From the NCBI GenBank assembly GCA_016872555.1, contig VGZO01000007.1:38897-102896 (forward strand): a stretch of DNA of 64,000 bases. Reading direction: 5' to 3'. Position 1 is the first letter of the stretch; the number at the start of each line of letters is the position of its first letter. This stretch comes from Planctomycetota bacterium. Lineage in GTDB: Bacteria > Planctomycetota > Planctomycetia > Pirellulales > UBA1268. Under the pieces are notes generated by a model. It saw only the letters and a program-made list of their open reading frames with translations. It had not been told where the DNA came from and did not search any database. The position numbers and the translations under genes were made by a program. Shown here piece by piece: positions 22,383-63,252 of the stretch.

Positions 22383-22829
22383 GTGACGAGTGTCGAGAGC
22401 CTTCGTAGTCAACGCGACGCCAGTGCGGACGTCTTCAGCTGGGAGGAGCTGCCCGAGCTCCTCGCCGCCGAGGAGCTCTGCGAATGTGCTGGCGAAACTG
22501 CGCTCGAGGCCCTGTGTGCGGCCGAGGCTCGATTCGGCGCCGTGCCCTCCGCCATCCCGTTGGCGGCCAAGGATGACGACGATTTCGAGGATGAAGAGGA
22601 AGAGGATCTCGACGACGAGGAAGATGACGACGACGAGGACGAGGAGGACGAGGATCTCGACGACGACGAGTGGGAAGAAGTCGAAGACGAGGAGGAAGAG
22701 GACGAGGAAGAGGACGACGAAGAGGGTGACGAAGAGGACGAGGAGTGGGACGACGACGAGGACGACGATTGGGACGACGACGAGGAAGATGAGGACGAAG
22801 AGGAGGAAGAGGACGATGACGACGACTGA
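22383..22829 (+). CDS. hypothetical protein with extreme poly-acidic (D/E, Trp-punctuated) C-terminal tail
   Basis: Start set at GTG 22383 (GGAGG 8 nt upstream). About 60-aa N-terminal region (MTSVESLRSQRDASADVFSWEELPELLAAEELCECAGETALEALCAAEARFG...), then about 90 residues that are almost only D/E, with W at DEWEE, EEWDDD and DDWDDD. Confidence 0.7.
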   Translation: MTSVESLRSQRDASADVFSWEELPELLAAEELCECAGETALEALCAAEARFGAVPSAIPLAAKDDDDFEDEEEEDLDDEEDDDDEDEEDEDLDDDEWEEVEDEEEEDEEEDDEEGDEEDEEWDDDEDDDWDDDEEDEDEEEEEDDDDD

Positions 22830-58872: not shown

Positions 58873-59325
58873 GTCGTCGTGACCCGTTCGACCGCATGAC
58901 AGTCCTCACGGCGACACCACGGCGCCGTCAACCAACGCCCAGACAGTCCGTGGACCGAGCCCTCGCGGGACTCGTTCCACGGCGTCTTCGCGCGGACTCC
59001 GGGCGCGGCGGACAGGCGGCGTCCGGAGCAAAGACGCTCCGGGGGGCAAATCGCGGGCCAAACGGAACGTCCGCCGGGGCCGGTGCGCGCCTGCCGGAGC
59101 GAACCGCTGCCAGACGGCAGTGTTTCAACTGAAAACCAGCGGCGCCCGGCCGTCGGTCATCGCGTTGCTTTCGCGATGGCAAGAAAGGCGAACTGTCGAC
59201 GTGGGGCAATTTGCCCCACGGTTCCGCGTGCCTTGGAGCCGACAGCACCGTGATGGGCCGCCGTGGATGGTGCGAATCGTCCCACGCAGTCGCCGCAGCG
59301 AGCGGGAACCGGCTCGATTGGACAG

Positions 59326-59396
59326 TTGCCCGGCTAGGATTCGAACCTAGACAAAGGGAACCAAAATCCCTTGTGCTACCGTTACACTACCGGGCA
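59326..59396 (-). tRNA. tRNA-Gln (anticodon UUG)
   Basis: Hand-folded on the minus strand. Acceptor TGCCCGG/CCGGGCA, D arm GTGT-AACGGTA-GCAC, anticodon stem AGGGA/TCCCT with loop TTTTGGT, T arm CTAGG-TTCGAAT-CCTAG, discriminator A. Confidence 0.9.
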
Positions 59397-59475: not shown

Positions 59476-60270
59476 TCATCGTGGTGACGACTCGCCGCCT
59501 GACCCCGTCCGCAGCTCTCCGGGCGTTGATCCGTCGCCGGCTGCGGTCGTCGCGGGCGCGTCGCTGGGACCGCCGGCGGCAGCGGTCTCCCCCGGCTTCA
59601 CCAGCCGGTTGGTGACCGCGAACGAGAGTTGCTCCAACTCGATCGCCAGATCGACGGAAACGACCTGGACCTGCGGTGGCAGGGCGAGCGTCACCGGGGC
59701 GAAGTTGACGACCCCTTCGACCCCCGCGGCGACGAGCCGGTCGGCGACCTGCTGGGCCTGGTCGGCAGGCACGACGATCATCCCCAGGCGGATGCCGTGC
59801 TCGCGGACGATCCGCGGCAACTCCGCGAGCGGGAGGATCGGCAAGCCCTGGATGACCTGCCCGACCTTGGCCGGGTCGGCGTCGAACACCGCCTGGATGG
59901 AGAAGTTCTGCCGGCCGAAGCCGCGGTAGCCGAGCAGGGCCTGCCCGAGGTTGCCGGCGCCGACCATCACCACCGGCCAGAAATGGTTGGTGCCGAGGAT
60001 GTCGCGCATCGCCCGGATCAACTCGTCGCAGCGGTAGCCGACACCCGGGTAGCCGAACTGCCCGAAGAAACCGAGGTCCTTCCGCACCTGGGCGTCACTG
60101 AACCCCAGGAGCGTGCCGAGTTGCCCCGACGAAATCGTCTGCTGACCGGCAGCCTGGAGCCGCTGGAGCTCGCGGAGGTACAGGCTCAACCGGCTGACCA
60201 CCACCTTCGGCACCGAGACGTCCGAAGGGGGCTCGCCGGCTGGGGGTCGCGTGTCGCTCATGTCGGCCAT
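59476..60270 (-). CDS. rex: redox-sensing transcriptional repressor Rex
   Basis: 264 aa. Winged helix RLSLYLRELQRL...ISSGQLG..., Rossmann VVMVGAGNLGQALLGY, and a low-complexity C-terminal tail. Confidence 0.9.
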   Translation of the reverse strand: MADMSDTRPPAGEPPSDVSVPKVVVSRLSLYLRELQRLQAAGQQTISSGQLGTLLGFSDAQVRKDLGFFGQFGYPGVGYRCDELIRAMRDILGTNHFWPVVMVGAGNLGQALLGYRGFGRQNFSIQAVFDADPAKVGQVIQGLPILPLAELPRIVREHGIRLGMIVVPADQAQQVADRLVAAGVEGVVNFAPVTLALPPQVQVVSVDLAIELEQLSFAVTNRLVKPGETAAAGGPSDAPATTAAGDGSTPGELRTGSGGESSPR

Positions 60271-60545
60271 GCGGTGCGCGTGTCATCCCCCCGAATCGGC
60301 ACGACTCTACCGACCCGCCCCCGTCACCCGCAACGAACGCGGGTCCGGGATGTCAATCTGTGCCGAATGTCCGGCCACTGGTGCCCTGGAAAAACGGTGC
60401 TGGCTGCGTGTTTTGGTCAATCTGCGTGGTTTTTGTGGCCGATGGTTTCCTAGGCGTGCCGGCGGACCGCGCCGGCCCCACTCCCCATCGTTTCCACCCG
60501 AACCACTCTTTGCTCAGGAGCACCTCCTCGCCAGAGGAAGCAGCC

Positions 60546-63134
60546 ATGAAGACCACGTGGACAGCCTGTCTGCTGCTTGTCGCCGGGATCGGATGGGCGG
60601 CCGCCGCCCGCGCCGATCTCGCCGACATGCCGGCCGACGGTGCCGGGACCGCGGCGCTTTCCGCCGCCGATCCCTGCATCGAGGGCGAACCGACGCCCGC
60701 CGACGACCCCGTCATCGACGCCCCGTGCAGCCCGACGCGGCTGGTCCGGGACGTGGTGTTCGAGAACCGTGACTTCACCTGCTGGAAGACCGTCTCCGAG
60801 CGGCAGGTGGAGCAGCGCGAAATCGACTGCATCCGCTTTGAGAGGGAAACGTCCTTCAAGGAACAGGAATACACGGTCTGCACGCCGGTGTGGGAGTCGC
60901 GCACCCGGACGGTGAACTACACCCTCACCAAGCCGGTGTGGGAGACGATCACCAAGGAGATCCCCTACACCGTCTGCACGCCGGTGTGGGAGACGCGGCA
61001 GCGCGAAATCCGCACCACGGTCTGCAAGCCGGTGTGGGAGACGCTCACCAAGGAGATCCCCTACACCGTCTGCAAGCCGGTCTACGAGACGCGCCAGCAG
61101 ACCTACACCGTCTGCAAGCCGGTGTGGGAGACGCTCACCAAGGAGATCCCCTACACCGTCTGCAAGCCGGTCTACGAGACGATGAGCCGCGAGATCCCCT
61201 ACACGGTCTGCAAGCCCGTCTACGAGACCCGCCAGCAGGTCTACACGGTCAACAAGCCCGTTTACGAGACCATGTCCCGTGAGATCCCGTACACGGTCAA
61301 CAAGCCCGTCTACGAGACCCGCCAGCAGGTCTACACCGTCAACAAGCCGGTCCACGAGACCATGTCCCGCGAAGTCCCCTACACGGTCAACAAGCCCGTC
61401 TACGAGACCCGCCAGCAGGTCTACACGGTCAACAAGCCGGTCTACGAGACCATGTCCCGCGAGGTCCCTTACACGGTCTGCCGGCCGGTGTACGAGACCC
61501 GTGAGCAGGTCTACACGGTCAGCAAGCCGGTCTACGAGACGATGACCCGCGAGATCCCCTACACGGTCTGCCGGCCGGTGTACGAGACCCGTGAGCAGAC
61601 CTACACCGTCTGCAGGCCGGTCCAGGAGACCCGCACCAAGGAGATCCCCTACACCGTCTGCAAGCCGGTGTACGAGACCCGCGAGCAGACCTACACCGTC
61701 TGCAAGCCGGTCCAGGAGACCCGCACCAAGGAGATCCCCTACACCGTCTGCAAGCCGGTGTGGGAGACCCGTGAGCGCGACGTCTGCAAGACGATCTGCA
61801 AGCCGGTCCACTACACCAAGACCGTGCAGGTCCACTGCGGCCGCTGGGAGACCGAGGTCTGCGAGATCCCCGGACCGGTGATCACCCGCTGCATCCGCGA
61901 GCCGGGCTGCTGGGTGTGGGACGAATGCCAGTGCAAGTGCGTCTACCAGCCCGGCGAGGTGCGCCGCGTCGAGGAGCAGTGCCCGCCTCGCCAGGTCACC
62001 AAGAAGCGGTGGGTGACCGAGATCCGCGAGAAAGAAGTGCAGTGCGTCCGCCACGAGCGTGAGACCGTCGTCGAGAAGCGCTGCGAGAAGGTCTGCCGGA
62101 TGGTCCCCGTGCAGCGGATCAAGACCTGCACCTACACGGTCTGCCGGATGGTGCCGGAGCAGCGCTGCCGCACCTACCAGGTCTGCCGGATGGTCCCCGA
62201 GCAGCGCGTCCGCACCTGCACCTACACCGTCTGCCGGATGGTGCCGGAGCAGCGCTGCCGCACCTACCAGGTCTGCCGGATGGTGCCCGAGCAGCGGGTC
62301 AAGACCTGCGCCTACCAGGTCTGCCGGATGGTGCCCGAGCAACGCGTCCGCACCTACCAGGTGTGCCGCATGGTCCCCGAGCAGCGCGTCCGGACCTGCA
62401 CCTACCAGGTCTGCCGGATGGTGCCCGAGCAGCGCGTCCGCACCTACCAGGTGTGCCGCATGGTCCCCGAGCAGCGTGTCCGGACCTGCACCTACCAGGT
62501 CTGCCGGATGGTGCCCGAGCAGCGCGTCCGCACCTACCAGGTGTGCCGCATGGTCCCCGAGCAGCATGTCCGGACCTGCACCTACCAGGTCTGCCGCATG
62601 GTGCCCGAGCAGCGCGTCCGCACCTACCAGGTGTGCCGCATGGTCCCTGAGCAGCATGTCCGGACCTGCACCTACCAGGTCTGCCGCATGGTGCCCGAGC
62701 AGCGCGTCAAGACCTGCTGCTACAAGGTCTGCCGGATGGTGCCCGAGCAGCGTGTGCGCACCTACCAGGTGTGCCGCATGGTCCCCGAGCAGCGCGTCAA
62801 GACCTGCTGCTACAAGGTCTGCCGGCTGGTCCCCGAGGAGCAGGTCCGGACCTGCACCTACAAGGTCTGCCGGATCGAGAAGGAGCAGCGCGTCAAGACG
62901 TGCACCCAGCGGGTCTGCCGGATGGTCACCGAGCAGTGCTCGAAGGAAGTGCCCTACAAGGTGTGCACGATGGTCCGCGAAACCCGCACCCGCCAGGTGC
63001 CGGTGACGACGGTCCGGCCTGTGCACGAGACGAAGACCATCGACGTGGTGCGGATGGTGCCCAAGCGGGTGCCGTACACCGTGACGCAGCGCGTCCCGAT
63101 GACGGTCTACCGCGAGGAACCCGTCTGCCAGTGA
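60546..63134 (+). CDS. secreted Cys-rich YTV-type tandem-repeat protein (two repeat modules)
   Basis: Start set at ATG 60546 within ORF 60360..63134. Signal peptide MKTTWTACLLLVAGIGWAAAARA. About 20 units of YTV[CN][KR]PV[YWHQ]ET..., a Cys-rich linker, then about 20 units of Y[QTK]VCRMVPEQRV[RK]T(C[TCA]). Followed by a strong terminator. Confidence 0.88.
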   Translation: MKTTWTACLLLVAGIGWAAAARADLADMPADGAGTAALSAADPCIEGEPTPADDPVIDAPCSPTRLVRDVVFENRDFTCWKTVSERQVEQREIDCIRFERETSFKEQEYTVCTPVWESRTRTVNYTLTKPVWETITKEIPYTVCTPVWETRQREIRTTVCKPVWETLTKEIPYTVCKPVYETRQQTYTVCKPVWETLTKEIPYTVCKPVYETMSREIPYTVCKPVYETRQQVYTVNKPVYETMSREIPYTVNKPVYETRQQVYTVNKPVHETMSREVPYTVNKPVYETRQQVYTVNKPVYETMSREVPYTVCRPVYETREQVYTVSKPVYETMTREIPYTVCRPVYETREQTYTVCRPVQETRTKEIPYTVCKPVYETREQTYTVCKPVQETRTKEIPYTVCKPVWETRERDVCKTICKPVHYTKTVQVHCGRWETEVCEIPGPVITRCIREPGCWVWDECQCKCVYQPGEVRRVEEQCPPRQVTKKRWVTEIREKEVQCVRHERETVVEKRCEKVCRMVPVQRIKTCTYTVCRMVPEQRCRTYQVCRMVPEQRVRTCTYTVCRMVPEQRCRTYQVCRMVPEQRVKTCAYQVCRMVPEQRVRTYQVCRMVPEQRVRTCTYQVCRMVPEQRVRTYQVCRMVPEQRVRTCTYQVCRMVPEQRVRTYQVCRMVPEQHVRTCTYQVCRMVPEQRVRTYQVCRMVPEQHVRTCTYQVCRMVPEQRVKTCCYKVCRMVPEQRVRTYQVCRMVPEQRVKTCCYKVCRLVPEEQVRTCTYKVCRIEKEQRVKTCTQRVCRMVTEQCSKEVPYKVCTMVRETRTRQVPVTTVRPVHETKTIDVVRMVPKRVPYTVTQRVPMTVYREEPVCQ
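60870..61830 (+). repeat. coding tandem repeat module A (42/48-nt units, 90-bp super-period)
   Basis: For example, 61201-61290, 61291-61380 and 61381-61470 align base-for-base with few substitutions. Confidence 0.9.
62091..62940 (+). repeat. coding tandem repeat module B (42/48-nt units, 90-bp super-period; 8 phased copies at 62131-62850)
   Basis: Copies start at 62131, 62221, 62311, 62401, 62491, 62581, 62671 and 62761. In a 40-nt-shifted register, 62351-62440 versus 62441-62530 differ at 1 position by my reading. Confidence 0.92.
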
Positions 63135-63213
63135 CCCTTCGATGCTGACGCCCCTGCCCCCGGCATGCGCCTGCGGGCCGGCCGGTGGGGACGGGCGGGA
63201 CGATTGGGAGTGG

Positions 63214-63252
63214 AGCGGCCCGGTCCGGCAGGACCGGGCCGCTTCTTTTTTG
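63214..63252 (+). terminator. Rho-independent terminator of the YTV-repeat gene
   Basis: 13-bp perfect GC-rich stem AGCGGCCCGGTCC-GGCA-GGACCGGGCCGCT, followed by TCTTTTTTG, 80 nt after the stop codon. Confidence 0.9.

Follow-up and report, generated by a model that had tools for sequence, protein, structure and literature searches.

A concertedly evolving 90-base-pair repeat array in a YTV-family gene of a freshwater Pirellulales member, and a mirrored partner array suggestive of a β-hairpin

The stretch of DNA considered here, 64 kb of contig VGZO01000007.1 (hereafter, the window), carries on its forward strand a gene for a cysteine-rich protein of the YTV family. The protein is built from two tandem arrays, A and B, which are separated by a linker, and array B has a period of 90 base pairs (bp). 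An open reading frame (ORF) at 60360-63134 (forward strand) encloses the 90-bp array in frame, and its likely start is the ATG at 60546, which lies directly downstream of AGAGGAAG, a Shine-Dalgarno-like motif. The product has 862 residues, of which 67 (7.8%) are cysteines, and matches Pfam PF07639 (YTV) with 661.9 bits (cut-off 21, E = 2.1e-204) over 26 stretches. It harbors 40 half-units of YTV-type tandem repeats with the core Y.VC[KR].V.E, in which the cysteine is conserved. A half-unit has either 16 residues (48 nucleotides (nt), denoted L) or 14 residues (42 nt, denoted s), such that the pair sL amounts to 30 codons, or 90 bp. The parts of the gene are as follows.

60546-63134, forward strand: coding sequence (CDS) of the 862-residue cysteine-rich, predicted secreted YTV-family protein, from the ORF list and Pfam; stop codon at 63132-63134
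60546-60614, forward strand: predicted signal peptide MKTTWTACLLLVAGIGWAAAARA with cleavage before DL, from inspection of the translation and a helix at residues 4-16 in the AlphaFold2 (AF2) model
60870-61787, forward strand: array A, 918 nt, 20 half-units with the core YTVCKPV[YW]ET, 13 of 16 residues and 7 of 14 residues, in the order LLLLsLLsLsLsLsLsLsLL (half-unit table)
61104-61199, forward strand: the "LL" break of array A, where one 16-residue unit directly follows another; it mirrors the break in array B (half-unit table and pattern comparison)
61242-61469, forward strand: five half-units of array A with asparagine at the position of the repeat cysteine, YTVNKPV[YH]ET (half-unit table)
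61788-62090, forward strand: cysteine-rich linker without repeats (..HCGRWETEVCEIPGPVITRCIREPGCWVWDECQCKCVYQPG..QCPP..), predicted hairpin-tip domain, from homologue conservation and AF2
62091-63008, forward strand: array B, 918 nt, 20 half-units with the core (Y.)VCRMVPEQ, 13 of 16 residues and 7 of 14 residues, in the order LsLsLsLsLsLsLLsLLLLL (half-unit table)
62319-62678, forward strand: homogenised core of array B, four 90-bp (14 + 16 codon) units with 5 variable nucleotide positions in total
62631-62726, forward strand: phase break in array B, two successive 48-nt units starting at 62631 and 62679 (codon table)
63009-63131, forward strand: C-terminal tail (..VPYTVTQRVPMTVYREEPVCQ), kept in orthologues
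63212-63251, forward strand: intrinsic-terminator-like hairpin with 15 pairs, 12 of which are G-C, ahead of a TTTTTT run (sequence scan)

The gene is monocistronic and encodes a predicted secreted, cysteine-rich YTV-family protein of a freshwater Pirellulales member (class Planctomycetia). By inspection, the N-terminus MKTTWTACLLLVAGIGWAAAARA|DL resembles a Sec signal with an AxA site, and the N-termini of the orthologues are similar. A sequence search of the PDB with the product finds no solved relative, the sole match being a designed repeat protein, and a search of NCBIfam returns one spurious sub-threshold match and nothing else. An 858-residue antisense ORF (60450-63026, reverse strand) that spans both arrays is repetitive and lacks family support; it was rejected as a shadow ORF of the G+C-rich repeat.

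YTV proteins have been reported as cysteine-rich wall proteins in Rhodopirellula baltica, Gemmata obscuriglobus, and Tuwongella immobilis (PMC8567305, PMC5287468, PMC12673574, PMC10632474). In these three species, homologues of the product are reported in the wall fraction that resists sodium dodecyl sulfate, and the family is reported as a major constituent of this proteinaceous wall. The primary wall reports (Hieu 2008, Sagulenko 2017, Mahajan 2020) are referred to here as they are cited in those four papers. The family has been described as limited to one class, the Planctomycetia, and the list of essential genes of Planctopirus limnophila includes one YTV protein (PMC10632474). The accessible YTV literature, of which the primary reports of Hieu (2008) and Mahajan (2020) do not form part, describes no protein structure and does not mention an alternation of 14 and 16 residues, concerted evolution at the DNA level, or mirrored arrays.

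The 862-residue product resembles the known YTV proteins in its strong match to the family hidden Markov model and its high cysteine content, and it has a putative signal peptide. Exact look-ups of the product, begun at either start codon, gave no match. Homologues in the protein databases are distant (at most 58% identity), and 77 of 80 matches carry PF07639. They have the same general layout, i.e., array A (YTVxKPVxET), a linker (..PGPV..EPGCWxWDxCxCxCVY..QCPP..), array B (VC[RK]MVPE..), and a PYTVT.. tail; the succession of array, cysteine-rich linker (PGP..C.C.C..QCPP), and second array is common to the product and database YTV homologues, one of them from Gemmata. The product, with its 40 half-units, is longer than most family members, which have ~480-680 residues. 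The gene is a new member of a known family, with an in-frame array that undergoes ordinary concerted evolution.

Tandem Repeats Finder (TRF) places array B at 62089-62875 with a period of 90, 8.7 copies, 90% matches, 2% indels, and a score of 1025, which is far beyond chance. A preliminary description of this DNA had read the array as eight phased, near-identical 90-bp copies at 62131-62850. The 90-bp tandem array is real, but six copies rather than eight are in phase. The last two are shifted in register by 6 bp because the 16-codon half-units at 62631 and 62679 adjoin. The near-identity applies to four central units (62311, 62401, 62491, and 62581), which differ by 1-5 nt per 90 in a gapless comparison. 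The first two units (62131 and 62221) are 7 nt apart from each other and 9-16 nt from the central four; read in the 90-bp phase, the units at 62671 and 62761 have 37-46 mismatches. Upon gapped alignment to a central copy, these last two are 82% and 75-80% identical to it. The variable sites of the four central copies comprise three synonymous positions and two positions in codon 23, which reads CGC, CGT, CAT, and CAT in array order.

The two types of half-unit spell the same peptide with different codons, GTG TGC CGC ATG GTC CCC in the 16-codon type and GTC TGC CGG ATG GTG CCC in the 14-codon type. This contrast had been described as consistent along the array. It is present in the four central pairs and in the pair at 62727/62769, but it does not extend to the first five half-units (62091-62318), all of which read GTC TGC CGG. 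Unit 62679 is chimeric and joins a 14-type head, GTC TGC CGC ATG GTG CCC, to a KTCCYK tail.

The self-repeat check with TRF that had been proposed for this region finds two arrays of period 90. The one in array A (60965-61771) has 8.9 copies with 85% matches, and its units are 4-25 nt apart per 90; the period of 90 bp is thus shared and the divergence greater, as had been noted.

The relatives of the gene comprise 78 loci (L001-L078) from a scan of one genome per species. Nearly all are metagenome-assembled genomes (MAGs), mostly from freshwater lakes, that are labelled Pirellulales, Planctomycetaceae, Lacipirellulaceae, and the like. The reported restriction of the family to the Planctomycetia holds here in that almost all 78 loci are planctomycete-labelled. 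Some gene-bearing MAGs have odd labels, namely Kuenenia (L012, L028, L040, L045, L052, L063), Cyanobium (L027), Chitinophaga (L071), and Granulosicoccus (L049). These labels probably reflect mis-binning or mislabelling; the loci that include an upstream flank keep the following neighbour, which is transcribed divergently upstream of the YTV gene.

59476-60270, reverse strand: rex-like gene for a redox-sensing repressor (Put_DNA-bind_N and CoA_binding domains)

Of the 78 loci, 60 keep the rex-like neighbour, across a range that includes freshwater Pirellulales as well as Bythopirellula, Aeoliella, and Adhaeretor; the loci are thus positional orthologues. The closest relative, L011 (MAG REEB424), has flanks with 91-96% nucleotide identity to the window, and the comparable parts of its gene are 97.4-98.2% identical. 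Its array A is the same unit for unit; its array B is short by exactly two of the central 90-bp units (180 bp). The block of asparagine-bearing half-units in array A is found in L011 and also in L010, suggesting that a cysteine-less variant unit has spread within the array and that cysteine is not needed in every unit. One further unit of array A carries serine at the position of the repeat cysteine.

The 30-codon pair had been proposed as the unit that amplifies, and the relatives bear out that it is the unit of length change. Apart from the 180 bp by which L011 is short, complete orthologues have C-terminal halves of 421, 450, 389, 361, 331, and 299 residues, which differ in steps of ~30. 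Comparison of individual units supports the suggestion of concerted evolution as well. Within one genome, the central units of array B are 1-5 (window gene), 2-4 (L002), 2 (L001), or 4-11 (L008) nt apart per 90 nt in unit distance matrices; between genomes, they are 8-17 nt apart, and the positional diagonal is absent. The first and last units do keep positional orthology, the diagonal values being 1-2 nt (L002/L038) and 2 nt (window gene/L011). Lineage-specific variants extend over several units: the s-units of L006 and L010 have AAG (Lys), for example, and the L-units of L010 have AGG/GAA. Judged from these comparisons, array B is a concertedly evolving tandem array, in which units within a genome are closer than units between genomes, the edges are more diverged, and length changes by whole units. 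Homologous exchange between copies in the 90-bp register, by gene conversion or unequal sister-strand exchange, would keep the central units alike, and the edge units would escape this exchange and retain their positional orthology between species.

The likeness of the units could also arise with no homogenisation at all, from purifying selection on the peptide and a G+C-rich codon bias that limits synonymous choice. The peptide unit VCRMVPEQRVRT(CT)YQ is indeed nearly invariant across species, and third codon positions are very G+C-rich in the genome. However, the central units are nearly identical at the DNA level with synonymous sites included, and units that encode the same peptide are 8-17 nt per 90 apart between species but 1-5 within a genome. 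Lineage-specific variants, both synonymous and non-synonymous, fill several units of one genome, and the two half-unit types spell the same peptide differently within one genome. Selection and codon bias by themselves are therefore a quite improbable origin of the likeness.

Arrays A and B are equally long not only in nucleotides but also in residues (306 each) and in composition (13 L and 7 s each). In the window gene, the order of half-units in array B is that of array A read backwards, reverse(A)[1:] = B[:19], i.e., a mirror match over 19 units with a shift of one unit. Even the phase break of array B, which spoils the reading of eight phased copies, has its mirror partner in array A. The mirror relation co-varies by lineage. 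In L001, both arrays contain an additional sL beyond the break, the distal ends of both arrays are shorter in L007, and L017 has four sL in both. In L034 (JBGSSS010000173, 52% identity), the 62-residue super-repeat LLLs replaces the 30-residue sL as (LLLs)n in both arrays, indicating that the higher-order period can change, but in A and B together. Loci of the Lacipirellulaceae type pair sLsLssLsL with sLssLsLsL and ssLssLsL with sLssLssL.

Exact mirrors are found in 12 of 28 distinct pattern classes, including those of the idiosyncratic L001, L007, L017, L034, L061, and L077. In permuted pairings of A and B, which ignore phylogeny here and in the comparisons that follow, exact mirrors average 1.75 with a maximum of 8, and none of 10,000 permutations reaches the observed 12. 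The mean mirror match score is 0.80; the non-reversed control scores 0.66 and permuted pairs 0.50±0.04. For the freshwater clade alone, the score is 0.774 vs 0.683±0.028 in permuted pairs, a value reached by 8 of 10,000. The lengths of the N-terminal and C-terminal halves of the orthologues are likewise correlated (rho 0.85). Neither inversion nor duplication of DNA can produce mirrored unit lengths in the protein, which points to a structural constraint.

The central claim of the preliminary description was that array B results from recent unit-wise amplification, in which one 90-bp pair was duplicated several times lately and the array is heading to length polymorphism. The four central copies, only 1-5 nt apart, the gradient of variants along the array (CGC, CGT, CAT, CAT), and the loss or absence of two units in the nearest relative are all what such an amplification would give. 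Features of the array recur, however, in other species. The unit number of array B is common to at least five other species; the pattern LsLsLsLsLsLsLLsL.. and this number are found in L002, L005, L008, and L038 at 73-78% amino acid identity, and the alternation of 14 and 16 residues, together with the LL break near the 3′ end, is conserved in freshwater-clade relatives. The CGT and CAT variants seen in the central units recur in L006, and the 16-codon spelling GTG..CGC..GTC CCC is common to at least seven species. The chimeric unit 62679 and the His-bearing unit that precedes it near the end of the array are present in L011 and L010 (the His unit in L006 as well), such that the chimera must be old. 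In addition, array B equals and mirrors array A, which unconstrained expansion would not give. The array thus appears old and homogenised rather than newly amplified, and recent amplification is unlikely. The near-identity of its units is, with good probability, the outcome of concerted evolution of an old array in which the length match between A and B holds the number of units. Free length polymorphism of array B is doubtful, since its copy number appears constrained.

Concerted evolution of in-frame tandem repeats is a known feature of streptococcal alpha C/Rib proteins and staphylococcal wall-anchored repeat proteins. These genes resemble array B in their near-identical internal DNA repeats, diverged edges, length steps of whole units, and frequent breakage in assemblies. 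Their copy number is freely variable between strains and is tied to immune escape. In contrast, the modal copy number in the YTV gene is conserved across species and apparently tied to a second array in the same gene. A related possibility is that the array serves as a contingency locus, in which changes in repeat number vary a surface protein for evasion of phages or predators or act as an on/off switch. The gene does encode a presumed surface or envelope protein with tandem repeats, and the number of short-long pairs next to the linker varies between species, from 1 to 7. Its peptide is highly conserved and not diversified, though, and the modal copy number is matched to array A. The units of 42, 48, or 90 nt lie inside the CDS and are all multiples of 3, so that no frame switching is possible, and a scan of the window found no promoter-like site overlapping the repeats, as a phase-variable locus would have. 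A role as a contingency locus is accordingly very improbable.

The preliminary description had also named the array as a likely place for collapse or expansion in short-read assembly, a hazard that is borne out for the relatives. The contig ends within the gene in 38 of the 78 loci, and by inspection 35 of the 39 cut ends fall inside array A or B, which make up 71% of the CDS. In five MAGs, the halves of the gene lie on two contigs (L041/L043, L035/L069, L018/L073, L039/L067, and L030/L055). A metagenome scan with a lineage-specific 28-mer from just upstream of array B found one Joint Genome Institute contig, from a different species (81% identity), that stops ~230 nt into array B. With such a record among relatives, the copy number or sequence of the window array could itself have been collapsed or expanded by the assembler. 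Yet it shows no sign of this. No two of the four central copies share the same ordered set of variants, the reading frame runs through unbroken, arrays B and A have exactly the same length and mirror each other in agreement with the mirror rule, and the unit pattern recurs in five other species. An assembly artefact in the window gene is therefore highly unlikely.

Some homologues have frameshifts or in-frame stops inside the repeats, namely P0008, L040 (7 stops), L063 (5), and L045. P0008, a protein database entry, slips repeatedly into the +1 frame, reading "..LLHGLQAGLRDQDQ..". Sequence errors are a more likely origin of these interruptions than real pseudogenes.

The mirrored order of units can be compared with the predicted structure. 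For the full protein, the AF2 model has a mean predicted local distance difference test (pLDDT) score of 51, with values above 90 at residues ~400-520, where the linker forms a small β domain with a strand of 49 residues on either side (393-441 and 482-530). When residues 309-621 are modelled as a sub-construct, the mean pLDDT is 76.9. In this model, two strands of 53 residues each (81-133 and 174-226, pLDDT above 90) flank the tip, and the lengths of the outer strands are mirrored across it (14/14, 8/8, and 35/33). Taken together, the equal lengths and mirrored patterns of the arrays and the predicted pairing of strands around the linker suggest that A and B probably form one long, two-stranded antiparallel β-ribbon in the window protein. 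Array A would zip against array B, with the cysteine-rich linker as the tip. Because array B would then have to match array A, the number of units would be held. All unit lengths are even, which would preserve one strand face throughout, and the regularly spaced cysteines would be available for disulfide cross-linking.

A search of the PDB for folds similar to the AF2 model returns only the long-hairpin stems of pore-forming proteins (lysenin, aerolysin, and anthrax protective antigen) and the phi29 tail knob. These contain long antiparallel two-stranded ribbons like that of the model, but the TM-score is at most 0.13 and the sequence identity 3-14%. The likeness is a geometric analogy without homology, and the pore stems were rejected as homologues on their TM-scores.

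Several points weigh against a constrained A/B ribbon in a wall protein. The confidence of AF2 is high only around the linker, and the sub-construct has a register jump of 16 residues in a low-confidence stretch; the contacts between A and B are deduced from the symmetry of the strands rather than read from coordinates. In the mirror register i + j = 919, taken over the whole arrays, 13 cysteines would be opposed, compared with 12 in a parallel control, a difference that does not discriminate between the two. The counts of A and B are unequal by 1-3 pairs in 10 of 19 close relatives, for example 6 against 4 in L011, which may be due either to collapse in MAGs or to a real tolerance of mismatch. 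The permutation tests of the mirror relation leave phylogeny out of account, and the length steps rest on short-read MAGs, in which copy numbers may be collapsed. Finally, the placement of the 862-residue protein in the wall is taken from homologues in other genera and is best regarded as a likely location by analogy.

The neighbours of the YTV gene also include genes for an NHL/PEP-CTERM protein and for a planctomycete-typical DUF1559/N-methyl protein, and one further feature lies between the 3′ end of the rex-like gene and the NHL/PEP-CTERM gene.

59325-59396, reverse strand: tRNA-Gln (anticodon TTG)

The Rex operator TGTGA-N6-TCACA has no match anywhere in the window. The sole other tandem repeat in the window with a TRF score above 120 is a low-complexity region at 22572-22826 that is rich in GAC and GAG and codes for aspartate and glutamate.

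For the family as a whole, these observations have both practical and structural consequences. YTV genes break or collapse in short-read assemblies, and copy numbers read from MAGs are therefore unreliable. That the copies are nearly identical reflects concerted evolution and gives no date for the array. The 30-codon pair is the evolutionary unit, and the array by itself, an in-frame tandem repeat within a known planctomycete family, is ordinary; the mirrored arrays and the hairpin that we infer from them are the only parts that go beyond the ordinary. It is tentatively proposed, at somewhat less than even chances, that YTV wall proteins in general are single giant β-hairpins, in which array A runs out to a cysteine-rich tip and array B runs back antiparallel to it. 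If so, ~300 residue pairs at ~3.3 Å per residue would give a ribbon on the order of 100 nm by estimate, in which cysteines at intervals of 14 or 16 residues could engage in a disulfide ladder or in intermolecular cross-links. The copy numbers of A and B would have to co-evolve, and the 90-bp array would keep a fixed length even as recombination makes its units alike in sequence. In that case, the mirror rule could help to flag collapsed assemblies of YTV genes. The mirror symmetry, the co-variation of A and B, and the AF2 hairpin thus provide a concrete, testable model of how these proteins may be built, which explains why their repeat number would be constrained.

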